Shown here: positions 3,029-30,819 of the stretch, one piece after another
Position numbering within the stretch: the first letter of the stretch is position 1
How the letters are laid out: each line of letters begins with the position of its first letter
Assembly: GCA_002269645.1 (NCBI GenBank)
Contig: NIVC01003581.1
Location: forward strand, 1-64,000
Direction: 5' to 3'
DNA length: 64,000 bases
Source of the DNA: Macrostomum lignano
Lineage: Eukaryota
Position numbers and translations under genes: made by a program
Notes under the pieces: generated by a model
Databases searched by the model: none
What the model saw: the letters and a program-made list of their open reading frames with translations, nothing else
What the model was told of the DNA's origin: nothing

Positions 3029-3102
3029 TAGTAATAAAATATATTACCCCTAATAAAGTATTGTGTCTCAGTTGTTGCTGGGGTGGTTCGGCAGGTTTTG
3101 AT

Positions 3103-3120
3103 ATCCCACCGCTGCCACCA
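3103..3120 (-). promoter_or_regulatory. Primer-binding site complementary to the tRNA-Leu(AAG/UAG) 3' end
   Basis: Minus strand TGGTGGCAGCGGTGGGAT, 1 nt after the LTR-terminal CA; exact complement of the conserved eukaryotic tRNA-Leu end ATCCCACCGCTGCCA+CCA. Confidence 0.8.
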
Positions 3121-3121
3121 G

Positions 3122-3652
3122 TGATATACTTTAGCTTTTGGCTGCCCGGGCTCGGGTCTGTAGATCTTGGTATCCCACCGCTATCACCAGTGTTACACTT
3201 GGCTTTCTGGTTTCTGTGGTGGGGCGAACTGCTATTTCCCGAGCAACCTTGCTGAGTATACTTATGGGGGTTGAGACTGGGGAGAAATCTAAGATCAAGG
3301 GTAGTGCTGCCACCAGCGTGGGAACCGTAGGATCCGCAATGAAGGGGTCTGTTTGGCTCCACGCAAATAAATAACGCTAGAACAACTAGTCTCAGATATT
3401 TCAATGTCCAAGTAACAGGACTCAATGGTAGCAAATGGCCTGAGCGGCGCAGTCCTGGCACTGACAATGTCCGCGCTTGAGCGTGTCTGAGTTTAGCTCT
3501 CAGAGGACCCCTAACTCCTATTAACCTAATAGCTATGTCTCGCGCAGATGGGCGGCGAGGGAATAGGTCTATGCGCCTGAAGCAGCAATAGACTCTAAGC
3601 CTATAAACTAACAGCTATTCTTAGAATCGCGCACGAGTGCTGCGACTGTACA
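3122..3652 (-). repeat. LTR of Gypsy element A (531 bp)
   Basis: TG...CA termini; preceded on the minus strand by purine tract GAGTGAGAGTGAG (3653-3665) and followed by a PBS; shares the GCTGCCACCA motif with the other LTRs in the window. Confidence 0.7.
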
Positions 3653-3665
3653 CTCACTCTCACTC

Positions 3666-4619
3666 TTATTCGCGCCTGTGTCGCGAATAGACACTAGCAG
3701 AATGGCTTCGCAGGACGGCCTTGAGCGGCGGTGGCAGGTCCACATGGCCGAGCTCCGCGGCGAATCGCCGCGCTACCAGTTCGGTGTGTTGGCGGCTGAA
3801 CTCTTGGTCGGCCAGCGTCTTGGCTGCTAAGTTCGCCGCCCATTCAAAAAGTGTTTGCCAGGACTGCAGGCTCTCTTGCCTGAGCTGGGCCTGTAGGTCT
3901 GGCGGCAGCCCGGCGAACAAGTGCTGCCGTACGCCAGCCAGCATAATCAAATCAGCTATGGCCTGGGCCTGTCTCTGTCTTGTCCACGCCATGAGATCGT
4001 CGGTGGACGTGCCGCGGCTGACCGGCGTCGATGGCGGAGCTCGCAATCCAGGCGGCGGACAGGGGCCAGGAGGCCTCGCATTCCGCGCATAAAGCGGCGT
4101 GGCGGTGGCTACCCGGGCAGCAGCCTGGCGCAGGCTTAAAAACAGCTCTCGCCCAGCTGGGCCACGGAAACGGCCTGCTCGTCGTCCTCGGCGACGGGCC
4201 AGAGGACGGGCCTCTGGATCGCCGCGGGGCTGCGGTGCGTCCGCGCCTCCTGGGCGCCCTTGGGGGCTGCCTCCTACTTGTGACGGGCGCTCCTGCGAAG
4301 CGGCACCAGCATTAATTGGGCGCAGACCCTTCGGTTGCGGCGCCAATGAGATGTCTTCATCTGCCGGTCTCAGACGATTGATGGATGCTCGGGCGGTGGT
4401 GTCATCCAAGGGTGAGTCCGGGGCCATCAGCTCCAATTCTTCATTCAAGAAGGTCAAGGAGGGAACTCGGCTTTTTAGCGGAACAGCCACCGAGCTCCGG
4501 AGCTGGAGTTCGCCCTGATTCCTCAGCTGATCCACCCTCTGGGCAACAGTAGTGCCACCCGCCGGCTTTTCAGGTTTAGTTGTAGTCCTAATCGCGGATT
4601 TCATTTCCTCGTCCGACAT
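3666..4619 (-). CDS. Accessory ORF (317 aa) of Gypsy element A between pol and the PPT; function unknown
   Basis: Uninterrupted ORF, ATG 20 nt after the pol stop, stop codon directly abutting the PPT; acceptor-like TTGCTTTCCAG just before the ATG. Confidence 0.6.
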   Translation of the reverse strand: MSDEEMKSAIRTTTKPEKPAGGTTVAQRVDQLRNQGELQLRSSVAVPLKSRVPSLTFLNEELELMAPDSPLDDTTARASINRLRPADEDISLAPQPKGLRPINAGAASQERPSQVGGSPQGRPGGADAPQPRGDPEARPLARRRGRRAGRFRGPAGRELFLSLRQAAARVATATPLYARNARPPGPCPPPGLRAPPSTPVSRGTSTDDLMAWTRQRQAQAIADLIMLAGVRQHLFAGLPPDLQAQLRQESLQSWQTLFEWAANLAAKTLADQEFSRQHTELVARRFAAELGHVDLPPPLKAVLRSHSASVYSRHRRE

Positions 4620-4638
4620 AATTGTCGCTGGAAAGCAA

Positions 4639-6010
4639 TTATTTTCGACGGAAGATGCGGTTAAGTAACCTCGCCAGGCGAGACGCATAAGTCTTGCGGC
4701 TAGGGTTGACCTGTAACCTATCAGGTTCCCTGCGCAATCGCTCTGGGCGGTTTAGTGTCGCTAGATCGACGTCCCTAGTCCTAGTTGCCTGCCTATCTAT
4801 AGTTGAAATTTCTCCTAGTTGTTGCTCAGGTGCGATGGGGGATGGGAGCGCGGGAGTAGGAGATTCGCGTGGGCTTGGGCTGCGTGACGGCAAATGCGCA
4901 ACCTCAATGGGCGCAAAATCTCCAATCCTCGATTCAGCTCCTTGGTCGACAGCTTCAGCGTTGGCGCCTCGCGATCGCGCTTGCAGCGGCGAGCGCGTCG
5001 ACCTCAGCGCAGCGGCGGCTGCAGCTGGGTGCGCCCAATTCACGTCGACAACGCTCTCGTCTTCGTCCTCGTCGGAGTCCTCGGTGCAGAACTCAGCGTG
5101 GCAGCCTGGCGCTTCGGTAGCAGCCTGTGGCGCCGGATGACAACGCTGTCGGTGCATCGGGTGCGGTGCTTCTTCGACCTGTGGGAGATAGTCGGCAGTG
5201 TGCACGGGGAGCAAATTCTTCCGGTGCACTACAAGCACCTCTTTTCGAGCACGGCGCTTCTCGCCTTGGCGACGGATCTTGTAGACCAGCTCGCCCTTCT
5301 GCTCGATCACCTCATAGACGGCCTTCCGCGGTCTATGGAATTTCGGCGCCTCACCGGCCTCTAGCACTGGATTCGCCAAGAACACTAATTGTCCTGGCTG
5401 CAGCGGATCTACTTGCGGTTTTCCGGCAAAGTGATCTACGCGGAGATCCTGCTGAGCGCGAATTCGCTCTTTTGCTAGGGCGGTCGCCTCACTCAATATA
5501 CTTTCAAATTGGCGCACATAATCTGGCAAATTCTGATAATCAGGTGAGTGGCGCAATGCGTTCTCAATAGGCAAATTGAACGTGCGGCCAAACATCAGAA
5601 AATGCGGGCTGTATCCTGTCACTGAGTGAACAGCCGTGCGCAGCGCTATTAAGCAAGCTGGCAGATAGTGTGCCCAATCTTTGTGCTTTGTCTCTAACAG
5701 ACACGTCAGCACAGACTTAATATTTCGATTCAGGTTCTCAACAAGCCCATTAGATGCAGGATTATATGGACAGGTTACTGTGTGTCTTATCCCATATATT
5801 TTCCAAAAATTATTAAAGGCGGCGCCCGTAAAATTGGTTCCTTGATCAGTATGGAACTGGGCTAGCACACCGTAAATTGGAATGAACTGTTCCTGAATCA
5901 CTTTAATAATTGTCTTGGCCTTCTGATTTCTCAGAGCATAGGCCCACGGATACTTCGACGTCGCGTCACACAAGGTTAGGACATATCTATGGCCTGCAGC
6001 ACTAGGCTGA
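4639..6010 (-). pseudogene. pol: 5'-truncated Gypsy pol: integrase core and C-terminal region (element A)
   Basis: rve motifs YVLTLCDATSKY, FHTDQGTNF, SNGLVENLNR and a GPY/F-like region; RT, RNase H and the HHCC finger are absent; sequence breaks at ~6010. Confidence 0.9.
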
Positions 6011-7209
6011 TTATGCATCATCAACAGTGGCAAAGCATTCGGTCTGCGAAACAGGACAGTGCACGCCTGTTAATCCACTTCCAAGAGCGGCGACAGGTAG
6101 CAGAGCGAGTGACACTGAACTCTCACTTTCCCGAAGCCTTCATGCCAGTCAGCTGGGACACTACGAGGACCTCGTCAAGTCCAAGACGGGGCACTCCTTC
6201 GAGAGCAAAGCGGGTCGTGCCTGCATGCAGATGGCAACATTGCGACACGCATGCGCCATAGATGACCGACTTGGTCGACTCGAGAAAAATTTGCTTCCGC
6301 GACTGATGTCCATGGTCGAGCAGCTTACAACGCAAGTGGCAGCCCTGGAGATTCAGAACCGCCAGCTGCTGCGCAACCGTGGTACTGCTCAGCAGGAGAC
6401 CGAGGATCCGAGGAGGACCAACCTGACTCCTATCGACTCGTGGGCCGAGTACGCCGCCTTCATAACATCTAAGGCCGTACAAGATAGACTCGTGAGTCAA
6501 TTTTTAAATAAATCATGACTTTCTAATTTAACGTAAATGTCTTTCAGTATCCTTAGGGCAGGCTCTGATATCAATATGTTTTTTATTAAATGCGAATATA
6601 TTTTTACATCAGCAAAAGTAAATACCTATATAGATGTTCAAATATAAGCGACGCGGTTAATAAGACAGGTCACTTTAACCTTTACTATTCTGATAGATGC
6701 CACATCTCCGTGGATGTCGCTCTGGAACGGTGCATGACACATTGAAGAGGATGATCGAAAAGTGCCTGTCAACGAAGATGCAGCTTTGTGTCAACTTCAG
6801 CGGGAGAGGAATGCAGCAGCGATCACAGCTGGATTTATCAGATGTGAAACTGGGCTTTCGCAACGCACTGCCACTTTTTCAAGGTAAGTGCAATTGACAT
6901 TAAATATAATCCTTTCTCCAGTCAACTCACAAAAGCTCAGCGCAACTGGAAAGCGTAAAACTCTAAACCTTTCTCCCCTTAGATGCTGTCGCCACGGTCT
7001 ATTCAGACATCACAAAGAGGCCATCCGAGAGGGAGGTCGAGCTAGGGATCATGACAGTCCTGAAGCATGCGGCCGACCGTGAAGCGGCCAAACAAAGGCG
7101 ACGGCAAACGCTTCCTGCTGCTTCAACAGCTGCCTGTGGCGAAGACCAGCCGGCGAGATGCGAGAAGAGGATACGACCTGACAGTTCTTCGGATGAGGAG
7201 AATGTGTAG
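6010..7209 (+). pseudogene. Spliced accessory gene fragment of a CACTA/EnSpm-type transposon (DUF4806-like), 5' end missing
   Basis: Exon pieces give a coiled-coil (LEKNLLPRLMSMVEQLTTQV), then TVHDTLKRMIEKCLSTKMQLCVNFSGRG and EVELGIMTVLKHAADRE, the pattern of animal EnSpm ORF2 proteins; GT-AG introns; domain name is inferred. Confidence 0.55.
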
Positions 7210-8316
7210 ATGGGATTTTAAAACTTTATTTTCTAAAGCCAGAAATTTTTGTATCAAAATTTGTTTGCCTTTTGCTGGTCACTTTAAAATTATTCTAGAA
7301 GCATACCAATATTGCTTAGAGCTGGGTATTAAAGAAGCCTTGAGGGGGGCTCGCAGCTCTATAGGAGGGTTTTGGTTGGCTTACCTCGATAGGAGACTCG
7401 CCCTTGGTGTTGGTAAAGAAGCTGCCCAGAATTGCCCCAAAATTAAGCCTTTTCTGTAGATTTCGGGGTCTCCCCGCTCTCGGACCACTTTAAGTAGTAT
7501 TTCAAACATTTTGCAATCTTTTTTGCGCGCACTTTCAAAAATTTGTCTGCTGGGGGTGGCTTGGGTGGACTCGGTCTTTGCACCGTCCCTGATTCCATTG
7601 TTGGACAGCGGTGTCTTAGTCCATAGGCTTGGGTTAGTAGCTCTAATAAGGTTATTCTCCTGGCCATAAGGCCAGGACCCAATTTGGGCCACTCGGGCTA
7701 TATTCCCCTGGTAGATAGGCCCCCGTTTTCTAGCGGCAGAGCCTTTCCCTGGGCTGATCCGCGGAAGCCCCCTAGGCTACCCACCCTCGTTTAACAACAA
7801 CAAGTAAACAAGTTTACAGTTTTATTAGTGTGTAAACACATCTATTAGAATAGCTTGCTTCTAACGGTTTTAGCTGTAGGTAATATACAAAGGCAAATAA
7901 ACATTTTTTTGCTCTGTGCTATTTGTCGACTCTTCAAAAACTGTGTAAACTGACAAAGTATGATATTGCTATGCGTTTTTAAATTGCGGACATCAGCTTT
8001 ATTTATATTTGTATCGTTTGATGCATATCGCGTGTTTTATCATTCTGATAGCGTATGTGCTATCAGCATGCTAGCTTGTGTACTGCTACTACAATACTGA
8101 TGCTACTAAAATACTGACTATAAAAAAATAAACTCCCAAGACGCAATATTTTTGCCATTTGAGTTGAATTTAGAATATTGTGCTACTATAAAAAATATCA
8201 GTCGCCACTTAGTCGACAGAATCATATGATATCGGACTGCGAAAAGTTGCGTCCTATTAGCGTCCTATTCTAGTCCCATTTCCTTCGACGTCGGATCCGA
8301 TCCGACGTCTTGTCGG

Positions 8317-11131
8317 TCATACATTCGGGTACAGTGGGGACGCCGATTTATCGCCGTCCCATTGACAGATTTTTTTTACTGGGTAAATTGACATGGACTC
8401 GACCATAGGAAAAACAACATATTCCGAATCAACATAAAAGTAGACTGCTTTGTTCGTAGGAACACCAGTAACATAAATGCGAGATTTAACAAAAATGCCA
8501 ATTCCAAGAGCACTAGAATTATAGAGATAGGTATAAAGATCCCTACGGAAAATTAGCTTGATTCCAGAAAGAGAACCATCAGGATAAATAGACTGCACAA
8601 TAACAGGAAAACCATTAATAATCGCAACGTCTGGCTTCGATACAGTAAATCTCAATTTCGAGCGCATCTCGGGTAACTTATGCAAATCTCGCAACGTAAT
8701 CAACTGGTTGAGAGTGTGACGTTGCTAGTTTAAGTGGTCCCGCAAAAGGGCCGTTGGACTATAGTTTCCCTTGCAATTTCTCATTTTAATTTCTCCAATA
8801 GTTTATTTTAACGTTTACTTGTAGTAGCGTGCAAATAATCTGTATCAACTGCTAATTCACTGTGTATTTGGTAGGCCTTGCGCTCGTCTGTGAATTTTGG
8901 CACGATCGATAATTTCAAATTCTCTCGCCAGCCAATGAAAACTCTCCGTGTTTTACGCTACCCCCCCCCCTTTTGCGCTCTTTATTAACCCCCGCCTGGC
9001 GGCGGGCTCCTCACTTCTTCTCCTCTCCTACCTTCTGCCTTCTCTCGCCTTCTGTCTGCCTTCTGCCCCCTCGCTTCGGGCCCCTCACTTCGCGGCTCTT
9101 GTTTTCCTTCTCTCTCTCTCTCTTGGCTGCCTCGAGCCTGCCTTATCTCTCGCCACGGCCCACCCTGTCTGGGCCCGTCTCGCCAGTCAGACCTGTTTAC
9201 GCCTTTCCACTGCCAGTCTATTCTCCTAGTGCCACTGCACCGTTTGCTCACTGCCATCATTCGCCACTTGGGATCACCTTCATCGTGCTCAACCGCCTTC
9301 AACTTAACTCAACTTATTGTTGCGCTGCCGCCAGTGCCCAGTACAGTAGTCCACTATATTGAAACTGTTAACCTTTGTGTAAATCTGACTACTACTCAAA
9401 TAAACAAGCCTACGGCCAACTTGTTGCCGCGATATTGCCAGTGCTACCGCTACAAACCGCCGTGTTGTCTCAACTAGTATTTCCTCGTCACGACAAAACA
9501 CGTGACAGAGAGCATGCGGCATAATTCCTCGGGTGCATCTAATACGATGCTTCAAATTTCCAAGAAACTTTTCGAATTGAAATGCAGAAAAATTAGACCA
9601 TGGGCCATATTGTATTACAAAATCATGAAGGTGAAGGAGCAAATGAGTATTATACGAGACGCACCGCTCATCGAACAAACGGGGAAAATCGGCAACAAAC
9701 ATCTCCAAGCACCTATGCGCATTTGAGTAAAAAATTGAATAGTTATGGGAAGAAAACACATAGTATGCAAAGTGCAAAAGAAGAAAGTGGTTAAAAAACG
9801 ACGCAGACAGATAGCTACCAAGCAAAAACGGCCCAAAATACAAAAGTAAACTACGAAACTCTGTAGCCTTGTAATGAGCAAGATTTAGATCGATGCGTCT
9901 CACGTGACGCTGAAACTCACAAGGTGTAAAGGAGCGGAAAGCAGAAATTTTGTCAGAAAGGTCTTTCACGCTTGCGCGGGTCACGCTACAGGACAAATGA
10001 AGTCCTTTAGTGCAAGAAAAAAAATACGAGCACAATCTACGGACAACACCTAAGCAAACACAATGTTGCTCGTCGATGGGAAAACCTGAGCGCAACGGCG
10101 TTACAGCAATCAAAGGGGATGCAGCTAATTGGTTGTCTTCCTTCACCTGACAGTACAACTCATCGCTTCTAGAAGTCCCAGCACTTCTAGAAAAAACAAC
10201 GCGATCAACATGATAGCGACCCTTGGATCGGCAATAACCACAACCATTCTTAGAAGTATGACCAGAAATGCATTGAACATATGCTCTAGCAGGGGCATCA
10301 CAAATAAAAAATACTTTGCCTAGTTTAACATGAGTTTCTCTAATATAAAAGCCAGTATCGCGCAAATACTTTATTTCTGCGACCAAATCACTCAAAAAAT
10401 GCAAAACATCCGGCTTCTGAACACCATAGTAAATGGCAACAGGAAACGGGCGGCGAATATTATTAAAAGAGACAAGAATTGGCCAAAGAGAAGCCGCAGA
10501 GCTCTTATATAGTGGCAAGTTATCAATATTAAACTTGCAGTCTACAACCAGCGCTTCTTCGGTAGCAGTGATGGGCAGTTGAAGTATTGTATTAGTAATA
10601 CAGAATTGGAGATTATCACGAATAGTCAAATAGGCATACTGTCCATGACCCATGGCAGAAACAGAGGCAAGTGATTTGGACGCTAGTTTTTTTAGTAAAT
10701 GAACAGTTGATGGAATCTTTTGGCAAGAACAAATTCTGCTTAGTAAATTTAGGAGATATTCCATAGAAACTTTGGAAACATTAGAGGGTAAAATAGAAAA
10801 ACAGTTCCTCGGAAAAACTCTTAGACTCGACTTGATCTGATTCTGACTGAGCATCAGATGGGGAAAAATACTCAAAGTCCAGCTCATCGAACTCAACGGA
10901 TTCAGAATTTCCAAAGCCTTCAGTCGCGCCTCCGTCAGATGGTCCACTGTCGGATTGAATCTCAGAAGCAAATGTACAAGAAACATCAGGACTTGTTTCA
11001 TCAGAACCCGGGGTCACCACTAGAGGATTTGTTGCAGCAGCTTGTTCAGCAGGAAAATCAGGAGAATCACTCCGAAGAATAGCGTCCAATTGGCGGTTAA
11101 TAGCACGATAATGAGTACGGCTGTTGCTCAT
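8317..11131 (-). pseudogene. CACTA/EnSpm (CMC) transposase disrupted by a frameshift (~10785) and a solo LTR
   Basis: Motifs FNIDNLPLYKSS..LWPIL, FICDAPAR, CGYC, YKATEFR, HLLLHL..YGPWSNFSAFQFE; C-terminal DLY..SSALGI..VVFP in ORF 8317-8703; removing 8715-9507 plus one TSD copy restores the frame (PHAL|NQLITL). Confidence 0.85.
8715..9507 (+). mobile_element. Solo LTR (793 bp), family unassigned (5-bp TSD fits BEL/Pao, Copia or some Gypsy)
   Basis: TGTGACG...CGTGACA termini, GAGAG TSD at 8710-8714 and 9508-9512; CCAAT (~8931), TATA-like (~8980) and AATAAA (~9398) on the + strand. Confidence 0.85.
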
Positions 11132-11818
11132 AGTTTAAGAAAATAGTCCACTGAAACTGAAGTTATGATATAGTATTATAAAGGCATCAAAACTTCATCG
11201 ACCAAAATTAAGGGATCTTGCGACGCTAAGTCAGATGGATTTACAGATTACGCATATTTAAAGAGGCTCATTATACCAGTTCGCATATGTAAAGTGATGT
11301 TTTGCTGTACGTAAATGGTTTAAAGAACTAAATCGATGGCTTGACTAGGCTTTTCTCTTCTGTACAATGAGATTCTGATACCCTCCTAATGCACCTTGAC
11401 ACACTTATTGAAAAGTTAAAGAAAAAATGTAAAAACTTTTTAATTAGCCAGATACTGACTTTTGTCAAACTTATAATTCAGACCTTTTTAGCTATAAATA
11501 TAAGAATAAATATGGACTCGAAAAAATGACATAAAGATCGAATTTAATATCAATATCATTGTTTTATAGCATTGCTAATAACTAACATTTCTTACTTTAA
11601 ATTTCAATAAATTTACAAAACTTGTGAATTTATTGCGTGGCGCGCGTATCAGACGAAAACAATTAGAACGAAATTTTAAAGTAGTGATTAACCTGCAAAT
11701 TTTTAAAACAAATTACCTAAATTAGCTAACAAACTTTTCTTGAAAGTGAATGGATGTAAATATAAATAGCCTATTGAACTGACAGAACTAACAAATTTAG
11801 ACAAAAAAGTTAATTTCT

Positions 11819-14069: not shown

Positions 14070-15087
14070 TGAGGTGGGGGTGGAGAAGATCTTTTCTTGC
14101 ACGGTTGTTTTGAATTTGCAGACACCAGTGAGGTGGGGCGGATTCCTCGTTTGAATTGCCGCCGGCGTTGAGTTCGCACGAATAAAACCGGAAAAACGCG
14201 CAGACGAATCACAACGAAATTTCTTCTCCTGTTGTACTCCGACAGCCGGGTTCTCAAGTCCGGGGGGAGGGTAGTTGCAGTCGTAGCGGAGCGGTCGTGT
14301 AGCGGCGCGGTCGTTCAAAGCGATGAAACACCGGAGATACAGGCACCGTAAATTAATGTGTCGATTTGCTGAGCTTGTTACTTTCAGTAGGGTAGAGCTG
14401 CCACCACCGTAATTTATGTATTACGGAACGAATCAGTCTCTGAGCTTTCTTTGAGCTGAGAAAACTTGGTTATTTAACGCCCCACGGGCAAAAGACTCAA
14501 GATAGGCTATGGCTTAATGTCAACGAATGAATATTAATATACTGGCGGGATATGAATTTTATTTATTGGTTTGAGCAGGATAACTGATAGATTATTTAAT
14601 TATTGACGGAGATGGACTCGGCGTGCCGCGGTGCGACGACTAATTAACTAATAAATTGACCAAAACTTATACAACTAAGATAGGCAAAGACAAACAAAAC
14701 AAGAGAGAGAGAGATAAACGTAAGCGGAGCCGAGAAAAGGTGTTTAAAAACATAAACTCACACATGCTCGTATATAAGCAAAAAATGAGCGAAATCCGCG
14801 GCTGGACCAGAATAAGGAAAATTACACATACGCGTTTGGTCCAGCGGCAGCAAAGTAACAAAAACATACAATTAAGCGTGATACGAAAGGGGGCATACGG
14901 AGGGAAACACTTACACGGGATGGGAATTAAAGAAATCCCATAGCGGGATGGGGTGCGTGATAAACTTTTCGAAAAACTGTCCCGGCTTGGGAAATGTGCA
15001 CTTAACGTGAAACATCAATTTTGAATTTTGAAAGTTTTAAAACTGCAAAAATAAATATTAAAGAAACAGGGGCAGCCACCTGCCACA
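14070..15087 (-). mobile_element. Solo LTR (1018 bp) of the element B/C Gypsy lineage
   Basis: TGAGGTGGGGG...CCTGCCACA termini as in B and C; 4-bp TSD ATAC (14066-14069; the right copy is split by the Mutator insertion: ATA 15088-15090 / C 30859). Confidence 0.85.
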
Positions 15088-17980: not shown

Positions 17981-18048
17981 CCTTCAGGAGTCCCTTCAAG
18001 AGTCCCTTCAGGAGTCCCTTCAGGAGTCCCTTCAGGAGTCCCTTCAGG
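17981..18048 (-). repeat. 12-bp coding repeat encoding (EGTP)n
   Basis: CCTTCAGGAGTC x5-6 inside ORF 16318-18282. Confidence 0.9.
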
Positions 18049-20325: not shown

Positions 20326-20406
20326 TTTCTATAAATTCACAGTATCTTGCGTAATAAATAGACAATTTTGTTAAACATTTAATGAACGATTTCTGAATGT
20401 CTGTCT

Positions 20407-21459
20407 TGAGGCGGGGGTGGAGGAGATTTTCTTGAAAATTGGGCGGTTTTGAAAATTTGCTGACACCAGTGAGCTGGGCGGATTCCTCGTTTGAATTTCC
20501 GCCGAATGTTGAGTTCGCACGAATAAAACCGGAAAAATCGCGCAGACGAATCTCAACAGGAAAATCTTTCTCCTTTTACTCCGGCTGCCGGGTTCTCAAG
20601 TCCGGGGGGAGGGTAGTCGTAATCGTAGCGGAGCGGTCGTGTAGCGGCGAGGTCGTTCAAATCGATGAAACACTGTAATTGGAGATTCCTGACTCCGTAA
20701 AATAATGCGTCGAATAGCTGAGTTTGCTACTTTCAGTAGGGTAGTTGCTGCCACCACCGTAATTTACGTATTACGGAACGGATAAGTCCCAGAGCTATCT
20801 TTGAGATGAGGACTTGGTTATTTTATGCCCCACGGGCAAATGATTCAATAAAACGCTATGGCTTAATGTCAACGGGTAAATATAGATTAATGTATGGTTA
20901 ATGGTTAACGTTATTATTATTAACTGTAAGCAGGCGAAAGTAAATAATATTATTATTGTCGACGAGGATGATGTTCGCAGGCGGTACCTGGGTGCTGAAT
21001 GCGATCGGGATTTAATACAACTGGGCGCGCTGAATATTAAGTACGAAGGAAAAAACGCGGGCACAGAAGAGGAAGAGAAAGGGAGCGTGAGAAAGAGGGA
21101 GAGAGAGAGAGCAGCAATTACACCAAAAGATAAGGGGTTTAAATAGACCGCAGAAATGGTTCTCACAATGGAGCAACGGCTGGGCTAGGTGGTGGGCACG
21201 CACCATTCACAACATGGATTTTCGCAAAAGTTACCGTAATGAGCGCATTTTAACAAACCTCCAGTATGAGGGCATGCATGAACACCGCGTGGATTAAACG
21301 GTGGACAAACCCGATGGACGAAGTCCAACTCGGGGAAAGGTTGGACTCGAACCACGCTAAGGAAAAAAAAACAGAAACGAAGCATCACGCGGACAGTCAA
21401 AATTAGTCACCGTCACAGGTCCCGTTCACTAAAATCAATAGTGGCATCCGCCTGCCACA
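20407..21459 (-). repeat. 3' LTR of element B
   Basis: Matches 29766-30819 with about 5 substitutions and 1 indel counted by eye; TG...CA termini. Confidence 0.95.
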
Positions 21460-21491
21460 TGCGCGGGGCGGCCGGGGACATGTCGAACAAT

Positions 21492-22246
21492 TCAACAGCC
21501 GCCGCCGTTGCAGCTGTAGCGGCCTCGGGCGGCGGAAATGCGGCCTCCGCGATTGGCTGAGCGAGTCGCACGTTCGGCTCCGTTGGGCTGGGCTGGTGGG
21601 TCAGGCTGAGCATTGGTGGTGGCCCTCGGCGGGCGGGAGGCTGGCGCGGAGCTGGCGAGGCGCGCGTCCCGGCATAGTTGATCTAACATAGCCGGTATCC
21701 GGTGGCATTGGCCTTGGTTGACCAGAAGATTAGTCAGCGTGGCACAGGGCCCAAGTTGTTGGCCAGTCGTCTCTAGGCGTAGGCGATCGCCTAGAAGGGC
21801 CATAGTGGTCTCGATGGCCGTGGTGGCATCGCGCCGGGAGTGTTGCCGGGCCAGCTGACTCCAGGTAAGGCAGTCGTTCAGGAACAACGGCCCGGGCCCA
21901 CTAATGGTTTCCCAAAAGAGGAGCTCGGCGAGCTGGCGGGCCGGTCGCAGCTCCGGAGTTGGGGCCGGAACCTCCCCGTTGGCCGGCGAAGACGGGGGCG
22001 TGTCGGCCCGCTCCTCGAGCAGGCGTACAGCTTCATGAACCACGTCTTCATTCACGGCGACCGCGTCGACGGCTTCTAAAAAAGGATTTAACCAGTGGTC
22101 GATGAGGTCGACCTCCGGACTCGGGGCTGGCGCGGGGGCGGATTCAATCCCGGCGAATTATTAGCGTTTTCCAACATCTCGCGAAACGCCGGTTCGAAGT
22201 CTTCTTGGTTGATTCCCATCATTGGGTCGTCGTGCAGATGGTCCAT
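21492..22246 (-). pseudogene. Accessory ORF of element B between pol and the 3' LTR (frameshifted; unknown function)
   Basis: ATG at 22246 (MDHLHDDPMM...) and an open frame from ~22160 to 21492 (VDLIDHWLNPFLEAV...LCRDARL); no clear env-like transmembrane segment. Confidence 0.45.
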
Positions 22247-23024
22247 GTCCGTCGGGATTAGCACGAGGGGCAAACAAAATAAATAGAGATATATATACAC
22301 AAAATATTTACAAGATAGCTCAGTGGGGTCGCAGTTGAAAAGGAATAAAAATCGCCGATTAGTTTAATTACAAAAGGATCGCAAGGAAGTTTACAATATG
22401 CGACAAACAGAGCCACTTGACTGCCATATATACTCGGAAAAACTGCCCAAGCGGTGAATAAAGGAGATTCACACGCTGGAACAGGGCACCAGTCATCACT
22501 CCGCGTGTACTCTATGGTGAACGCGCACGGAGGAGGGGTGGGTGACCCATAGAGGAGTAATAAAACAGATAGCGAACCGCGGCAAAAGGGGGGGGGTCTA
22601 ACTTAGAATGAAAGGGCGCCTTAAACGGCTCACATCAAATGGGGCGGTTAAAAAAAAGGCTGGTTAGCACACAAACAACAAATAAATTAGTAAAGGAGCA
22701 AAGGCGGGTTCCGTACTAATAATAATGTTATAATAAAGTAGGTTAGCTACCGATATGGCATGCAGAGACTTCATAAGGAGTTACAAGGCAGGGAATACTA
22801 CTGGCACTGGGAGAGGGGGGGAGCCAAAATTAGCGGCCCTCACAATGTTCCCAGGCTCGAAACAAAATCGAACAAAGAGCGGGGGGTCGAGGCCTAGAAC
22901 AGGGGCGCTTGACCTGAGCGGCAAAAGACAGTTTGGCCCTTAGACAGTGGGCTGGCAAACTTAGAAAGAAAATTAAAGATTACCTACAGCTTTAATCGAA
23001 CTGTAAGGTGTACAAATTCGCTGC

Positions 23025-23610
23025 TTTTCTCCTGAAAGCATAAGGAAAAGGAGGGCGCTTCTGCACTTCGGCCGTGTGCGAAGAAGCTTACAGCAAACGG
23101 GGATTTGCAAAAACAGATGAAACGCGAAGTACTGTATCGCATTGAATAAATATTGACGCGTTGAATAAATATCGATAGCATTGGTTAGATGGGAAAATTC
23201 ACAGTACATGAGAACTGAGAGGTTCAGAACGCTGCTTTTAGCCGGAAAGCATAAGGAAAACAGAATTGAACAGCAGAATGAGAAAATTTGTTGCTTTTAT
23301 CCCTCAAGCATAAGGAAAATTACATTGAAATAAAATTGACGCCTGCTTTTATCCGGAAAGCATAAGGAAAATGACACTGCTTTTAACCCTGAAGCATAAG
23401 GAAAATTACATTGAAACGACGCCTGCTTTTATCCGGAAAGCATAAGGGAAATGACACTGCTTTTAACCCTGAAGCATAAGGAAAATTACATTGAAACGAC
23501 GCCTGCTTTTATCCGGAAAGCATAAGGAAATGACACTGCTTTTAACCCTGAAGCATAAGGAAAATTACATTGAAACGACGCCTGCTTTTATCCGGAAAGC
23601 ATAAGGAAAA
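23025..23610. repeat. Array of the TGCTTTTA....(G/A)AAGCATAAGGAAA motif (10 copies; ~80-bp dimeric unit) downstream of pol in element B
   Basis: GCATAAGG at ~23039, 23249, 23308, 23360, 23394, 23440, 23474, 23520, 23553 and 23599. Confidence 0.9.
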
Positions 23611-23741
23611 AAAATGACGAAACGGCAAACTTAAATGGAAAACTAAAATCGGCTTTCAGCACAGAGCAGGTGCAGAGAAAGCTTGCAGCAAAATGAGAAT
23701 TGGAACGCGTTCGCAATTACAACTACTAATAGTAATGCGCA

Positions 23742-26700
23742 TCAGAAGTTAGCAACTTGGCGCAACAGAAAACTCCATACCGGCTCCAGCTCCATACCGA
23801 TGTCAGGCAGATCCGGGTCGCCTTCAGACAGCACTTCCGGATGGCGGAGGCTCGGCTCGAACAATTGGCTGCCGCGCAGGTCAGGCTGGGCTGCGTCTGG
23901 CTGTTCGGGAGCGGGCGGATCGGCTGGGTCGACTTCGCTTTCATCGCTCGACTCGTAGGGCAACATTGGCCGCTCTGTCTGGCGCGGCGGCTCCTGCGGC
24001 CGATCTGCCATCATCTGCGGCACCTTGATGATGTTATTGCGATGAACTAGCATTTCAGCTGGGCGTCCACGTCGGGCTGTTGCAGGCTGGATCCAGTAGG
24101 CTACTTCGCCGACCCTCCTGTTGACCTTGTACATGCTTTTGTACGGCCGGTGAAAATTCGGCAGTTCGCCCAACTCGAGCTTCGGGTTGGCCAGGCAAAC
24201 CAGGTCTCCGGGCTGCAGTTCCACGGGCTTGGGTCGGTTCTCGTAGTACTCTTCACGGCGTTGGATCTCAGCTCGCAATCGCTGTCGCACAATCCTTTCA
24301 GTCTCGGCCAGTCTACGCTGATGCTTTGCGATGTACTCGGGGAGGTCCGGCGATACGTCCAGGCGGTCTAGGGTGTTATCGATCGGATACCGGTAGGGCA
24401 CTCCGTAGATGACGTAATGCGGCGAGAATCCCGTCGTACGATTGACGGCTGATCTTAGAGCTGTCAGAGCGGCTGGCAGCATCTTGTCCCACTGTTGATG
24501 ATCTTCGAGGAGACAAGTGAGCACCTTTTTGATGTTCTTGTTGCACGATTCAGCTTGACCGTTTGCCCAGGGCGAGTATGGCGGCGTCGTTGTCTGCCGG
24601 ATGCCATAGACTTCGCAGAAATGTCGAAACTCGTGCCCTGTGAACTGTTTGCCTTGGTCCGAATGGATCCACGCGGGGATTCCGGTGATCGGGAAGACTT
24701 GCTCTTGCAGGAGAGTTATTATCGTCTTGGCGCGCTGATTCTTCATGGCGAAGGCGAAGGGGTACTTTGACGTCGTGTCGACGTAGGTGAGGATGTACTT
24801 GTTGCCTCGGTCTGTCGGGTCTCCAGTGGGGCCCATGATGTCGATCGCACATCGCCCATAGATTTCGCAAACCGGAAATGATTGTACATGCGCTGGGATG
24901 CGTCGCCGTCCTTTACTCTGAGTGCAGGTCTGGCAGGAAGCGACATAGTCGGACACGGCCTTGGCCAGGGCCGGTCGCCAGAACCTCTCGCGCACCTTTG
25001 CGATGGTGAGATCTCGGCCCATGTGTCCGCAGTAGGGCGAACCATGCAGGTCGGCAAACACTGTGGCGTCGAGACTCTTCGGCAGGACGATCCTCGCATT
25101 GTCCTCCTCGCCAACATCGTCGAGATGGATGACTAATAGTCCGTCGTCTCGGACTTCCAATTGCTCATAGAATGCTAAGAGATTTCGCTCATCTCTTGTT
25201 AGATTTAATCGCTGATTCAGCGGCGGCTTCGGTTGTCGACTTTCAATTAAGTTTATCATCATCGCGATGGCGGAGTCGGCACGCTGATGGGTCTGGAGCT
25301 CCTCACGTGTGACTGGTCTCGGGATGTGATCAGTTAAGTTCAAAGTTTGGCGTCTGTTAGTCGAATTAGTCGGCGCGGCTTCGGCTGTGGCGGCATGGTT
25401 CGGGGTCTGGAGCTCCCTCCGCATAGTCGCTACTCTGGCCGGTTGCCGGGTCGATGAAGAATTTGAGGGCCGATCCTCGTCGGTCATGTCAGCGTCGGCT
25501 TCGTCAGCATTAGATTCGTCAGCAGATGAGAGTGAGTCAGCGGAACTGTCGGTATCAAGGCTGAATCTCACCTTCTTGAACACAGGACGGCGATCGGGTT
25601 GGCAGCGGTCTTCGTTGGCTGCGCTGTGGTCGCTATCCTCGTCGCCTTCAGCTAGTAGCCGGCGGCTCCTTGACGGGCAACATGTCGTGCTGCTAAAGCT
25701 GGTGGGCGACCTCTGTGAGTCCCGATAACGACTGGCAGATAGCCTCGACTTCGTCGCCGGCGGATGCAGCTCTGTCAGCGGCTTGCTGTCGGCTGTCGAT
25801 GTTGCGGGCGGCGTAGTCTCGCCGTTGGACTCAGTTGATTTCGTCGGCGGCTTTCGTCGGTGACGGCGGGTCGGTCGCTTCTTGCTCGGTGGAGGACTAG
25901 GGTGGCTGCTGTCGTGGACCTTCGGCGCCGCTGCGCCAGTTATCGCGGCTGGCTGCTTACTTTGGTCCTCGACGGCGGCCTCTCGCTGAGCCTCCTCCAA
26001 ACATTCAGCGTCGTCCTCAGGCCGTCTTGAGAGGCCGTCGGCGTTTTGGTGCTGACTTGATTTTCGATGCTGGATCTCGAACTCGAATTCGCTGAGGCGC
26101 TGTAGCCATCGTCCGAATATTCCTTCTTGTTGAGTTCGCCTTAGGATCCAGGTTAATGCGGCATGATCGGTTCGGCAGATGAACTTCTTGGCCAGCAGGT
26201 AGAGTCTGAAGTGTCGCATTCCATCTACGACTGCCAAGAGTTCCTGTTTCGTAATCGGATAACGGGCTTCGGCCGGTTTGAGTCGCCGGGAGAAATAGCC
26301 AATTGGGCGCTCGATCCCGTCGGCTTGGCGTTGGCTCAGGCAGGCTCCGATTCTGGTCGCAGAAGCATCCGTGTCCAGGATAAACATTACTTCCGGATCC
26401 TCGCTGAACTGCGGATACGCGAGCACTGATGTCGAAGTCATGGCTGCTTTGAGCTGATCAAACGCGTCTTGCTGGGCTTTTCCCCATAGACAATTGAAAT
26501 TTCTAATCTTCTTTTCCTTGATTAGGTCGTGGAGCGGAGCTGCAAGTTCTGCGTAGCCAGGTACGAATTTAGCATAGTAAGCGCACGTGCAGACAAAACT
26601 CTTAAGCTGTCGGGCTGTTCTTGGTCTTGGCCAGGTTTGAATAGCTTCGATTTTCGCCGGGTCGGTCTGATTCCATCTTTGGTTACTACGTGTCCCAGGT

Positions 26701-28414
26701 AGTTGAGGCTTGCCCGAAATAAATGGCACTTCTTGCCTTTGAACTTTAGATTAGCTTCTTGGACTCTCTTAAATACTTCTTCCATATGCCGTAGGTGGTC
26801 GTTAAATTTCTTAGAATAGACGATTACGTCATCCAGGTAGGCGATAGCACTTTTGTAGGCAATCCCGTTGAGCACAGCGTTCATGAGGCGCATGAAGCTG
26901 GCTGGAGCTGAACTTAACCCCATTGGCATAACATTGTAGGCGAACTGTCCGCGGTGCAGCGTGGCAAAGGCAGTCAGGTCTTGATCTTCCGGACGCAGAG
27001 GAATCTGATAGTAGCCGCTATTCAAATCGAATGTACTAAATAGCTGGCTTCCTTCGAGGCTGGCGAATGCTTCTTGAATATTAGGAATCGGGTACGGAAA
27101 ATACTCGCACTTTTGATTCAGACTCCGGAAATCTTGTACAATTCTTAGGCTGCCGTCCTTCTTCGGGATGATCACCAGCGGGGTGTTGTAGCTAGAGAAA
27201 CTCGGTCGAATCACGCCTTTGGCCAGCAGATCGTCGAGTAACTGGTCCACCTTGGGTAGCAGGTGCGGCGGGATCCTTCGCGTTGGGAGATGCACCGGAT
27301 CTTTGTCCTTCAGTACGATTTTGTGGGTGACCAGATGAGTTCGGCCGAGATCGTGCGGCCCCTGCGAGAAGATGGTCTGGTACTTTCTCAATAGCTCGAT
27401 GACTTGAGCGCGCTGGTCACTGGACAGATCCTCGCTGATATCGATCTCCTTAATCCAAGCATCGGGATCCTCGTCTTGGATTTGATTGACAGAGTCTTCT
27501 GATTTCGGCAGCGGGAAGAAATGTAGCTCGGGCAGTCTGATTGGTCTAGCAATCCCGACTAGGGCATTCGCTCGCACTTTGATGGCTGTAGTGCCACGGT
27601 TGATCATTTCAATAGCGCCTTCTCCATTAGCCATGGAAATCAGGGCAGGCGCGGCGTCCAAGTGCTGCACATCTTCTTCACGACGAGCCGGTTTCAGCGG
27701 CTCGATCACGGCGGGTGTACCCTGGTTTTCTTCTCGTCCTTTGGCTAATTTGATTTTAATTCGGGCAGATGATAACGGCGGCACAGTGGTGCTCTCGGCC
27801 GTGTAGATTCTGCACGTTGTAGCTTCGGTTCGCGTGTAGCGAAGCGGTGCGGCTGTGCCGTCCTTGAAAAACAGCATTCCGGCGGCGAGGTCCAGTGATG
27901 TGCTGTACTTCTCCAGGAACTCGAAGCCCAGAATGTTGTCATGCGATCCTTTCGCTAGCAGAAACTTGACTGTAGGCTCAAAATTACCAATCTTCACTTT
28001 GATAGATAGTTCTCCTGCCATCTGAATTGGCTCACCATTGTAGGTCACGATGCGCTGAAGGCAGGGCTTGATTTGGCCACGCAGGGTCGGGTCGTCAGTA
28101 CATAGGCGGTGCCAGGTGCTGAATCCTAGGACTTCACACTTGGACCCGGTATCAAGCAAGAAAGCAAAATAGCGGCCTTGAATCTCACCAGTTAAAAACG
28201 GATCTCTCCGAGGTCGCTTGGGTGCAGAATTCTGTACAGGTGCGGCGGAGGCTGTCTCAGCAGTGGCCTGCTGAGCGACTAAAGTCCTCGGCGGGGACTT
28301 CAGTACTGGCGCGGCTGCTGGATGGCGCTGCCCCCGATGGCGCGTCCAGCCGTCCCGTTTCCCGAGCTGCCGTTGCGCTGAGACGCGGTGCTGGCCGACC
28401 GCCGGTGCGGGCAC
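23742..28414 (-). pseudogene. pol: Gypsy pol polyprotein (PR-RT-RNase H-long linker-IN) with one frameshift at ~26670
   Basis: LLDTGS protease, YLDD RT, LDTDAS..ELLAVV..TDH RNase H, H..H..CQTC, AIDIMGP/HSDQG/NGQAES integrase; element C reads IKTN-AKIE across the break, which implies a 1-nt loss in B. Confidence 0.95.
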
Positions 28415-28495
28415 TCATCGGCACGATGCTCGCGATTGCACCTGTAACACATGGCATTCTGCCGTCGCAACTGGTAAGGCGGCGGCCTTGAACTC

Positions 28496-28527
<32 letters not shown>

Positions 28528-29694
28528 ACGTTGACCTCCTGCTGGCGGCGTTCTCGGCGGAGGGTTGCTGCCGTCTCGTGGTTGCTGAAGTCGATGGAAC
28601 GGTTGCTGTGGCACCATTTGCGTGCCGGGTGTCGTAAATTGGGCGCTTCCGTCGGCGCTGCGGCGAGGAGTCGAGGGTACCAGACATCTGGAGCGTTGGC
28701 CCCACGGGTCCCGCGGCTGGTGGCGAGGCTCCAATGGCTCCGGGGTGTCGTTGTCGCGCGATCCCCGTGAGTAGAATTCTCGCATCTCGTTACTCAATGT
28801 CTCCAGTAGGCGTCGCTGCTCCTGCAGAGTTTCGGCTTGTTGTTCCATCACTTCACGCAACCAGTTCTCCTCGGGCCGAGATGACTTGTCGTGTTGCACC
28901 ACAGTGGGCGTCTGACCATTGTCATCTTCGAGGACCCGGACATGTCTCGCTGCTGGCGGCGGTGCTACTCGCTGAGCCAGACTAGCTGCTGTCTCCAAGC
29001 GTAGCACGGCCCGTCTCGCTGCGGTCAGATTCTGCGGTCGCACCAGGATTAGCTGTTCTCTCGCCGACTGAGCAATCCGCACTCCCACTGTGAACTGATC
29101 AACCAGTTCAGCCTGCTTCTGAACCGGGGTAAAATGCGGAAATGCTCTATCGGCCAGAGCAATTAGTCGATCGCCATAGTCGTCAACGCTCTCGTTCTTG
29201 CCTTGCTGGCAGCTTCGGAACTGCTCCCGGTACTCCAGCGTGTCGGCCACATGCGTAAAACGTTCAGACAATCGCTGTTTGAACTCACCAAACGTTAGAT
29301 TGTCTGGCAGCTCCATCCTGACGACTGCGGGATAGGTGGTGGCGATATCCAGATTCACGAGGACCTCCGCCTTCTTGCGTCTGTCGTCTGTGATCCCGTT
29401 GAGCTCGCAACGCTCCTCCAGAGCCTGGATCCAGACGTCGAATTCCTGGTTCTGCGTATACCGCTGAATCTTGACCGGTTTCGGCGCTGGAGCTCGATCC
29501 TGCTGCTGGGGCTGCTGGTACACATGGTGATGGTGTTGCGGCTGGCCCAGGCTGGTCTGCTCCAGTCGCCGGCGCACCTCTTCGGTCACCGCGCGAATCA
29601 TCTCGTCGTAGGTCGGTCTTGTCGTTGAGTTGTCGGGGCCCGCGGCGTCGGCTGTCGCGTCCGCGGTCGTTGAATTAGTATTAGTTGAAGCCAT
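28300..29694 (-). CDS. gag: Gypsy Gag (464 aa) with poly-Q tract and CX2CX3HX4C zinc knuckle
   Basis: ATG ~50 nt after the PBS; capsid-like FDVWIQALEERC...ESVDDYGDRL..QFTVGV; CYRCNREHRADEC. Confidence 0.92.
28317..28363 (-). promoter_or_regulatory. -1 ribosomal frameshift signal between gag and pol
   Basis: G GGA AAC heptamer (28357-28363) in the gag frame, with pol in the -1 frame; GCTGGA/TCCAGC stem 6 nt downstream; conserved in element C (43906-43912). Confidence 0.8.
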
Positions 29695-29743
29695 AGTAGT
29701 GTAGCGTTTGAACGACTCGTTGAAAGGGTTTTGGCGTCTCGTT

Positions 29744-29764
29744 ATCCCACTTAGCTGACCACCA
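29744..29764 (-). promoter_or_regulatory. Imperfect tRNA-Leu(CAA/CAG)-type PBS of element B
   Basis: TGGTGGTCAGCTAAGTGGGAT, 1 nt after the LTR CA; compare canonical TGGTGTCAGAAGTGGGAT. Confidence 0.75.
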
Positions 29765-29765
29765 A

Positions 29766-30819
29766 TGAGGCAGGGGTGGAGGAGATTTTCTTGGAAATTG
29801 GGCGGTTTTGAAAATTTGCTGACACCAGTGAGCTGGGCGGATTCCTCGTTTGAATTTCCGCCGAATGTTGAGTTCGCACGAATAAAACCGGAAAAATCGC
29901 GCAGACGAATCTCAACAGGAAAATCTTTCTCCTTTTACTCCGGCTGCCGGGTTCTCAAGTCCGGGGGGAGGGTAGTCGTAATCGTAGCGAAGCGGTCGTG
30001 TAGCGGCGAGGTCGTTCAAATCGATGAAACACTGTAATTGGAGATTCCTGACTCCGTAAAATAATGCGTCGAATAGCTGAGTTTGCTACTTTCAGTAGGG
30101 TAGTTGCTGCCACCACCGTAATTTACGTATTACGGAACGGATAAGTCCCAGAGCTATCTTTGAGATGAGGACTTGGTTATTTTATGCTCCACGGGCAAAT
30201 GATTCAATAAAACGCTATGGCTTAATGTCAACGGGTAAATATAGATTAATGTATGGTTAATGGTTAACGTTATTATTATTAACTGTAAGCAGGCGAAAGT
30301 AAATAATATTATTATTGTCGACGAGGATGATGTTCGCAGGCGGTACCTGGGTGCTGAATGCGATCGGGATTTAATACAACTGGGCGCGCTGAATATTAAG
30401 TACGAAGGAAAAAACGCGGGCACAGAAGAGGAAGAGAAAGGGAGCGGGAGAAAGAGGGAGAGAGAGAGAGCAGCAATTACACCAAAAGATAAGGGGTTTA
30501 AATAGACCGCAGAAATGGTTCTCACAATGGAGCAACGGCTGGGCTAGGTGGTGGGCACGCACCATTCACAACATGGATTTTCGCAAAAGTTACCGTAATG
30601 AGCGCATTTTAACAAACCTCCAGTATGAGGGCATGCATGAACACCGCGTGGATTAAACGGTGGACAAACCCGATGGACGAAGTCCAACTCGGGGAAAGGT
30701 TGGACTCGAACCACGCTAAGGAAAAAAAAAACAGAAACGAAGCATCACGCGGACAGTCAAAATTAGTCACCGTCACAGGTCCCGTTCACTAAAATCAATA
30801 GTGGCATCCGCCTGCCACA
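29766..30819 (-). repeat. 5' LTR of element B
   Basis: Direct repeat of 20407-21459; adjacent PBS and TSD. Confidence 0.95.

Follow-up and report, generated by a model that had tools for sequence, protein, structure and literature searches.

A textbook LTR has one U5 end and one primer-binding site (PBS), and the two LTRs of a new insertion are identical. Artificial constructs from 1998 with two PBSs on one RNA reportedly took alternative second-jump routes; the arrays described below are natural and heritable. Drosophila gypsy has two tRNA-Lys2 binding sites, the second of which is not needed for cDNA synthesis (PMC1635307). This second full, dispensable site is the likeness to the elements studied here; as described in that source it is fixed at the 3' end of the genome, whereas here the extra sites are found inside the LTR, directly preceding the true PBS, together with an att end and in 0 to 3 copies. 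Most work on the second strand jump, co-packaging and primer inheritance comes from yeast Ty elements and retroviral vectors (PMC5371799). In Ty3 and Ty1, the PBS is bipartite or extended, with tRNA contacts beyond the 3' 18 nt that include the D-arm, and the primer sequence is not inherited (PMC5371799). An R-U5-mediated second jump of that kind would let an imperfect PBS persist, comparable to the bulged PBSs reported here, but the Ty3/Ty1 account in PMC5371799 includes neither a repeated LTR end nor a variable array, and here a tRNA-perfect PBS also occurs in a minority (6 of 37 cassette-less family E junctions and one family B copy). Helenus, Ajax and Cassandra TRIMs have small-RNA-like sequence in the LTR, with tRNA bodies resembling Pol III promoters (PMC10886601). 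They are alike in placing tRNA-related sequence inside LTRs, but in that description the tRNA bodies are non-complementary to the PBS and the elements non-autonomous, whereas the cassettes are antisense 3'-end sites with att ends in coding elements. The cassette was also considered as a TRIM or TRIMp3 (Helenus) and rejected as such: although a PBS and a single end are present, it lacks a PPT, and its hosts are coding.

Ty3/Gypsy families of Macrostomum lignano are treated in PMC12801592; the closest named proteins are 74–84% identical, and the families described here are probably the same kind of element. The main text of that paper describes no array, since “PBS” and “tRNA” occur in it 0 times. 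No description of U5 arrays of LTR end plus PBS was found in the openly accessible papers searched.

The window analysed is a stretch of 64,000 nucleotides of M. lignano DNA (contig NIVC01003581.1, positions 1 to 64,000). Its family A features are as follows.

3054..3709, minus strand: family A 3' LTR, 5'-truncated; 91–92% identical to the LTRs of an intact A element (L137), with an integrase ORF upstream
3300..3315, minus strand: upstream U5 box TGGTGGCAGC-A-CTACC, complement of both tRNA-Leu acceptor strands
3190..3195, minus strand: first att-like end (TAACA) and spacer C, read from sequence
3172..3189, minus strand: inner PBS 1, 16/18 to tRNA-Leu AAG/TAG
3122..3171, minus strand: cassette body type X, closing in an att-like CA and spacer
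3104..3121, minus strand: inner PBS 2, 18/18, internal and not the true PBS
3054..3103, minus strand: cassette body type Y, carrying the conserved box also present in families D, E and F
4639..6069, minus strand: family A integrase fragment (rve)

The initial annotation had identified the word at 3172–3189 (minus strand TGGTGATAGCGGTGGGAT, after TAACA-C) as a PBS-like site inside the LTR, and its 16/18 match to host tRNA-Leu AAG/TAG was confirmed. Position 3123, which had been taken as the true LTR end, must be moved: the site at 3104–3121 is followed by a cassette and then by flank, with no A leader, and this cassette recurs inside other family A LTRs. Because cassette and flank follow, and the integrase ORF lies upstream of both sites, both were placed internally in a 5'-truncated 3' LTR ending at about 3054–3059. 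Note that arrays can displace calls of the LTR/PBS boundary, as happened with this element.

Element B, a B-like solo LTR and element C provide the remaining features.

14070..15087, minus strand: B-like solo LTR, flanks TTAT/GTAT (3/4)
14118..14138, minus strand: inner end of the solo LTR, with 10 bp that match the terminus exactly, then the spacer and a decayed word of the PBS
14391..14406, minus strand: upstream box of the solo LTR
20407..21459, minus strand: element B 3' LTR, 99.4% identical to the 5' LTR; TSD AGAC
20459..20473, minus strand: inner CTCA-C and 10-nt PBS word of the B 3' LTR
20740..20756, minus strand: upstream box of the B 3' LTR
23742..29934, minus strand: element B gag, PR-RT and RH-IN ORFs, in Ty3/Gypsy order
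29744..29764, minus strand: B true PBS, bulged, 21 nt
29766..29817, minus strand: B cassette body and true LTR end
29818..29832, minus strand: inner CTCA-C and 10-nt PBS word of the B 5' LTR, a degenerate cassette head
30099..30115, minus strand: upstream box of the B 5' LTR
29766..30819, minus strand: element B 5' LTR
49265..49284, minus strand: element C true PBS, bulged; the LTR ends at 49286 and has no inner copy
49518..49531, minus strand: upstream box of element C

The inner B words annotated at 29818–29827 and 20459–20468 are indeed TGGTGTCAGC after CTCA-C, the solo LTR repeats 14070–14079 exactly at 14129–14138 and continues with TGGTGTCTGC, and the spacings of 59–69 nt were correct. 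Such “LTR end plus PBS” words were not due to chance (2 matches versus 0.00 expected in one count, and 4 versus 0.01 in another, in which the fourth match is the true junction of C). A decayed inner copy had also been reported in C, but no att-like end with a TGG word is present there; among 19 other C-like loci an inner copy was present in 9 and absent in 9, and 1 was not parsed. The proposal that each inner copy matches its family's own tRNA-Leu type stood as a word match only: the true PBS of B pairs better with AAG/TAG than with CAG (−27.2 versus −23.7 kcal/mol), and its inner word pairs poorly with both (−13.7/−14.4 kcal/mol). The sole tRNA-perfect B PBS seen (C2067, with a TSD) is of the AAG/TAG type, the same as that of A. 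Family B has a degenerate cassette that is close to fixation in the B set, and its inner 10-mer shows no greater conservation than flanking U5 (89 of 266 windows as conserved). No cassette gain was seen in the B set, and for one candidate B LTR ending at the inner att (C524) a TSD was looked for and not found.

Genome-wide, among families with a tRNA-Leu PBS, at least four related Gypsy families carry 0–3 stacked cassettes at the U5 end of the LTR. Each cassette of ∼60 nt comprises an 18-nt tRNA-Leu PBS, a conserved 24-nt box and a second LTR end; mini-units of 16–35 nt and decayed relics are also present among the arrays. Elements of families B, C, D, E and F and intact A elements have gag followed by PR-RT-RH-IN, the Ty3/Gypsy order, and their LTR pairs start with TG and have a PBS, PPT and TSD, as in Ty3/Gypsy LTR retrotransposons, with some family A LTRs terminating in TA. 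The TSD is 4 bp in 22/22 D/E/F pairs and 6/6 B pairs. The 4-bp TSD and long LTRs presumably suit Osvaldo-like elements, which we treat as a lead only. The R/U5 border was placed provisionally, from TATA-like and AATAAA/GT-rich motifs only; comparing four contig sets with the B LTR gave neither an RNA start nor an RNA end, a result given no weight in either direction.

Cassettes were counted on D, E and F LTR ends using search queries from which the array was left out. Per independent 3' or solo LTR end, family D had none in 3 and one in 13; family E none in 6, one in 8 and two in 2; and family F none in 15 and one in 5. Cassette number was observed to vary between LTRs that are 99.5–100% identical over 620 nt. 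Cassettes are dispensable to the elements, since 37 of 70 family E 5' junctions have none. The initial annotation had suggested looking for insertions that use the inner terminus, and these exist: nine intact elements without cassettes retain both LTRs and a TSD, and thus inner termini serve for integration. Two further insertions, C163 and C2478, also end at an inner terminus. The inner PBS is tRNA-perfect in 63/63 D/E/F cassette counts, in which loci were not de-duplicated, and the true PBS is bulged in 47/70 E and 9/12 F. In multi-unit A arrays, the upstream PBS is more decayed in 8 of 11 (2 ties, 1 opposite), a trend that may represent one inherited variant.

The two LTRs of single insertions were compared by hand counting in 35 de-duplicated insertions of D, E, F and A that bear cassettes and show both ends. 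Arrays were equal in both LTRs of 30; in the other five, all with a 4-bp TSD, they were unequal, four having one more cassette at the 5' side and one having one more at the 3' side. Both C2478 and C163 have a cassette on the 5' side only and a tRNA-perfect PBS, and share 99.8–99.9% identity with siblings that have a bulged PBS and no cassette. C2478 (one cassette 5', none 3') differs from each of two such insertions by a single mismatch in 7 kb, and its LTR is identical to one of them at 985/985 positions; C163 differs from another by 4 mismatches in 7 kb. The direction of change is gain, because a tRNA cannot regenerate a bulge, and both are likely gains caught within one copying cycle, although they could have arisen in two steps, by gain and then inner priming. 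As the best candidates for inner priming, they descend from cassette-less relatives. In family E, a perfect PBS accompanies cassettes in 17/33 versus 6/37 without (Fisher p=0.002); with one subfamily removed this becomes 8/24 versus 6/35 (p=0.21), and copies are not independent. The U5 end was also considered as a generally preferred site of difference between 5' and 3' LTRs and rejected, only two of 37 pairs (C511 and C199) differing there, without general enrichment. Arrays can bias dating from LTR divergence.

The U5 end is a variable array of 0–3 cassettes that the elements do not need, and we favour, with some reservation, the view that units are acquired from a co-packaged partner during the second strand jump and disappear through recombination. 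This route was read from genomic copies alone. The tRNA would normally prime at the outermost PBS, and the whole array would therefore be copied into both LTRs. Plus-strand strong-stop DNA, ending in the tRNA-copied PBS, would sometimes anneal to the complement of a partner's inner PBS, carried either by minus strong-stop DNA or by a minus strand elongated along the RNA of that partner. Once annealed, the plus strand would copy the cassette and a perfect PBS and then finish the jump, so that the 5' LTR alone would receive a cassette, on its leader side; the following cycle would copy it into both LTRs. Loss would likely occur by recombination between the array's own end-plus-PBS repeats. Predictions have the conserved box pairing with the tRNA D-arm or, alternatively, folding back on the inner PBS, and the cassette is likely a small passenger that spreads itself. 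By folding energy the inner site is preferred to a bulged outer PBS, a preference that leaves unexplained the copying of whole arrays in 30/35 elements. A hairpin hiding the inner PBS from tRNA receives no support from the energies. The bulged PBS as a guard against the cassette anti-PBS was ruled out, bulges being commonest without cassettes.

These natural, recently active families depart traceably from both textbook rules, and their arrays and bulged PBSs provide built-in markers of the Gypsy second strand jump, of the frequency of co-packaged unlike RNAs and of primer inheritance. If the cassette spreads itself, it would form a new tier of parasite on retrotransposons. A stronger version, possible but doubtful, is that the cassette is a ∼60-nt parasite of LTR retrotransposons that writes itself into cassette-less genomes, its minus strand mimicking tRNA-Leu. 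The cassette would be copied within tRNA-linked minus strong-stop DNA, where it would offer a landing site for the partner's plus strand, and new units would join with a polarity like that of CRISPR arrays. The minus strand of the cassette would resemble a miniature tRNA-Leu, with a D-arm-like part and a 3' end, and the cassette head would have been kept across families diverged to 64–79% RT identity. If true, this would place the cassette among the smallest self-spreading elements known.

An unlikely alternative casts the cassette as an accessory site for tRNA binding that benefits the element by raising its replication rate, with gain and loss as side effects; PBS and D-arm box would load or unfold the primer or bridge two RNAs, like the extended contacts of Ty1/Ty3. 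Such a role would, like the favoured reading, fit the conservation of the head across families whose RTs are 64–79% identical: when D, E, F and A LTRs were compared, only the upstream box and the PBS/cassette head aligned, and the head (PBS and first 24 nt) had a mean z of 3.7, versus −0.5 to 0.9 for other segments. Both would also fit the predicted pairing of the head with nt 7–21 of tRNA-Leu, which in D, E, F, L104, L113 and L115 falls in a single register. This pairing is modest against tRNA-AAG in E, F, L113 and L115 (z −1.9 to −3.9), weak in D (z −0.7) and L104, and absent in A types X, Y and Z; the lack of box pairing in X and Z counts against an accessory site. The D leader scores z −2.2 against CAG, and the fold-back on the inner PBS gives z −2.2 and −2.4 in D and E and −0.9 to +1.3 elsewhere. 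Second, non-priming tRNA sites have precedent (PMC1635307, PMC5371799), and 13/16 D ends and 29/30 B-search loci run through the cassette, one with an altered terminus, but it is absent from 37/70 E junctions and 15/20 F ends, including young insertions with TSDs.

It is less probable again that the cassette is a neutral by-product, a duplicated end plus PBS persisting via slippage and inner priming, the head being shared by exchange rather than selection. The quick turnover of cassette number, the mini-units and relics, and the B inner word, no better conserved than its flanks, all agree with this. A by-product is harder to reconcile with cassettes whose heads are related from family to family (mean z 3.7) but whose second halves are not (0.3), and the cassette is not a leader copy: module against own leader gave z −0.9 to 0.6, which ruled out a captured leader. 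The recurrent LTR extension suggested in the initial annotation thus held insofar as end-plus-PBS units are gained and lost, although these units represent an old, separate cassette rather than a capture of the present leader. LTR-like loci of other organisms with the same PBS lack a second site, which also argues against a by-product. Viral contigs searched twice for similar sites gave 0 matches; metagenomes yielded 4 loci, of which none carries two full PBSs; and a prokaryote collection gave 20 loci, none with a second GGTGGCAGC in the flanks examined, ∼14 of the 20 looking like LTR-element contamination.

The earlier suggestion that 3' tRNA fragments are drawn to the inner PBS as a decoy, leaving the true PBS protected, is very improbable, even though the inner site is tRNA-perfect in all 63 non-de-duplicated D/E/F counts and the true PBS is often bulged. 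A perfect site on the same RNA would be expected to add a target and remove none, bulged PBSs are commonest where the cassette is absent (31/37), the att end and box are both unneeded for a decoy, and the B copy retains just 10 nt. The two grounds for refutation set out in the initial annotation apply in part: conservation of the inner word gave a divided answer, the B 10-mer not exceeding flanking U5 and the PBS/24-nt head being kept across D, E, F and A, and the unit is missing from many copies (37/70 E junctions, 15/20 independent F LTR ends). Least probable of all are assembly errors or post-insertion unequal exchange, since, although the units are short and tandem, homopolymer gaps are frequent in these contigs and the LTRs of one insertion (C440) are only 98.4% identical, arrays are equal in both LTRs of 30/35 insertions, distinct cassette variants adjoin each other, duplicated contigs of one insertion are concordant, and gained cassettes are missing in the same element's 3' LTR.

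Separately, the conserved tRNA-complementary U5 box upstream of the arrays gave 1,635 matches, compared with 3 for the control; by variant, CTACC was found 1635 times and CCACC 25 times.

The inner LTR-end and PBS words reported by the initial annotation 59-69 nt inside the LTR end are real, being found where it placed them and more often than expected by chance, but were misread in detail. In element A, the site at 3104-3121 was taken as the true PBS (the one adjoining the leader). What follows it is not A leader but a unit known from within other A LTRs, and beyond that flanking sequence, so that both A sites lie inside a truncated 3′ LTR. The inner copy assigned to element C is absent. For element B, use of a different tRNA type is not supported: the true PBS there is a hybrid with a bulge (inserted nucleotides), and the sole perfect B copy is of the AAG/TAG type. 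The B inner word is identical to nt 1-10 of the bulged PBS carried by C and by some of the C-like copies, and so is probably a remnant of the PBS of that lineage itself. Within B, this 10-mer is conserved to an ordinary degree (0.964; median 0.954), and the proposed tRF decoy failed its tests. Host tRNA genes include 12 with a 3′ end complementary to TGGTGGCAGCGGTGGGAT (Leu-AAG/TAG) and 16 of the type giving TGGTGTCAGAAGTGGGAT (Leu-CAG), types being assigned by scanning 18 tRNA genes.

All elements in the window (contig NIVC01003581.1) lie on the minus strand. Element B is complete, with gag, PR-RT-RH-IN, target-site duplication (TSD) AGAC and two LTRs; the closest named matches to its pol are Macrostomum lignano proteins (74-84% identity over ~30% of the query).

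20407-21459, minus strand, element B 3′ LTR (99.4% identical to the 5′ LTR)
29766-30819, minus strand, element B 5′ LTR (99.4% identical to the 3′ LTR)

Across the 764 Mb genome, the pattern CA-Y-PBS gave 482 matches and its reversed control 0. Thirty of these loci were examined and yielded A, further families D, E and F, and single copies. The RTs of A, D, E and F are 64-79% identical to one another and 48-55% identical to that of B. Cassettes (~60-nt units of tRNA-Leu PBS, 24-nt head and second LTR end, or att) were counted using searches anchored upstream of the array, taking the best 30 of 40 rows per family; LTR ends carried 0, 1 or 2. Among independent 3′ or solo ends in these rows, i.e. 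those left after removal of duplicated flanks, D had 3 with none and 13 with one; E had 6, 8 and 2 with none, one and two; and F had 15 with none and 5 with one, one F locus not being parsed. For A, 9 ends had one, 9 had two and 1 had three, zero-cassette ends being disfavoured because the query contained the array. The complete set of 70 E leader junctions fitting the search pattern divides into 37 without a cassette (31 bulged, 6 perfect PBSs) and 33 bearing one or two (PBS bulged in 16, perfect in 17). Cassette number varies among LTRs 99.5-100% identical over 620 nt, and on a 67-row leader and gag tree, in which the long row C208 is unreliable, the four states require 26 changes. Mini-cassettes were also seen: one D LTR has three PBS units of 35 nt, and one F LTR a unit body of 16 nt (L247 on C251, L136 on C255).

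A 4-bp TSD was present in 22 of 22 D/E/F pairs tested. Both LTRs and a TSD are present in nine elements that lack a cassette; judged by these structures, the cassette is not essential, and the inner end functions as an att site. Both ends were visible in 35 insertions of D, E, F and A that carry cassettes (counted by hand, dropping duplicates and most tandem arrays); arrays were equal in both LTRs in 30 of them, which implies priming at the outermost PBS. One extra unit was found on the 5′ side in C163, C2478, C1967 and C440, and on the 3′ side in C206. C2478 and C163 are each identical over 850 nt to separate insertions lacking a cassette and having a bulged PBS, and over 7 kb are 99.9% and 99.8% identical to them, respectively. 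Since the tRNA template cannot give rise to a bulge, the simplest parent is one with a bulged PBS and no cassette, the daughter having gained PBS-cassette-PBS on its 5′ side, with both PBSs perfect. By the simplest route, the plus strong-stop end would anneal to tRNA-linked minus strong-stop DNA of a partner, at the complement of the inner PBS, copy the cassette and 18 nt of the partner's tRNA, and then jump. Newly gained units would be expected to adjoin the leader; the more decayed PBS is the upstream one in 8 of 11 A arrays, and D has decayed PBS relics upstream of intact PBSs. Loss would occur by crossover in the end-plus-PBS repeat or by inner priming. We regard this scheme of gain and loss as somewhat probable. 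A switch of template onto a partner's RNA, immediately downstream of a perfect PBS, would yield an identical product and may instead have been the route. Inner priming is a less probable source of the 5′-longer insertions, since the tree placed C2478 and C163 by cassette-less relatives. Head-to-tail tandem elements with common LTRs occur on C255, C1903, C3668 and C4250 of the genome (G000); in that on C1903, the last LTR bears a cassette and differs in its U5 end, and the TSD lies at the outer ends.

Comparison of D, E, F and A LTRs by blastn gave two common pieces only, the inner PBS with cassette head and an upstream box, neither of which was found between B and these LTRs at E<0.05. Seven representatives show relatedness over the initial 24 nt of the cassette (mean z 3.7), A being represented by a type-Y cassette of our choosing, types X and Z fitting worse. 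Relatedness between families was absent from the next 20 nt (z 0.3), upstream U5 (0.4) and leaders (0.9), and heads did not match their own family's leader. The head has predicted complementarity to tRNA-Leu nt 7-21 in one register, of modest significance and absent in A. Its predicted fold-back on the inner PBS, at −17 to −20 kcal/mol for families D, E and F and for type A-Y, is only 0.8-2.4 SD beyond shuffles and does not outweigh tRNA binding.

The upstream box, GGTGGCAGC-(1-7 nt)-CTAC, is present in all four LTR types of the window:

3300-3315, minus strand, A
14391-14406, minus strand, solo LTR
20740-20756, minus strand, B
30099-30115, minus strand, B
49518-49531, minus strand, C

Ending in CTACC, it has 1,635 genomic matches versus 3 in the control, with freely varying spacers (at least 15 variants among the first 100 matches listed); the CCACC variant, a better hairpin, has 25. 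This excess and the varying spacer fit a predicted pairing with both acceptor strands of tRNA-Leu; a protein site is also possible. On the minus strand, the box has the form of an acceptor micro-helix ending in ACCA.

A 2-nt insertion after nt 5-7 of the true PBS, differing between families, was found at 47 of 70 E and 9 of 12 F junctions; A and B true PBSs have similar bulges, and the D junctions seen were all perfect. Such bulges (29744-29764 in B, 49265-49284 in C, and families A, E and F) are family-specific, of 1-3 nt after nt 5-7, and persist despite the existence of tRNA-perfect revertants. PMC5371799 describes a Ty3 route in which primer sequence is not inherited; the persistence of the bulges fits either such a route or selection in their favour. 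The F leader (L120, L127, L130) begins, next to the true PBS, with tandem TTCGAGA-like words resembling the tRNA T-loop complement. Some LTRs terminate in TA rather than CA (L137, L051 and others in family A; L104, L115), the TSD being intact in C1946.

Cassette arrays are a new variation on known LTR biology. gypsy and Ty3 have second or extended tRNA sites that work in partly similar ways, whereas here the LTR end is repeated in variable number; the cassette-bearing structure is not a TRIM. No description of U5 end-plus-PBS arrays was found in the literature, coverage of which was incomplete. Outside the genome, one metagenome contig (L250, weakly related gag) has a similar box 58 nt ahead of this tRNA-Leu PBS. 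No second site was present at the remaining 23 outside loci that carry this PBS, so the feature is lineage-specific. In marine bacterial MAGs (L413-L430), about 14 junctions resembling those of LTR retrotransposons carry a eukaryotic tRNA-Leu PBS and are probably host contamination.

In B, pol ORF 23742-26750 has a low-complexity spacer between RNase H and integrase (residues ~222-556) without a Pfam match; the spacer, of 280-430 aa, is present also in D, E, F and A. A 361-aa ORF at 3666-4751, between the A integrase and 3′ LTR, lacks a Pfam match and, by blastn, any match to the intact A element L137. Element C carries an inserted non-LTR element (endonuclease-RT-RNase H) at 44112-47929, and an ORF at 33989-35806 has zf-C2H2_12/DUF4371 matches.
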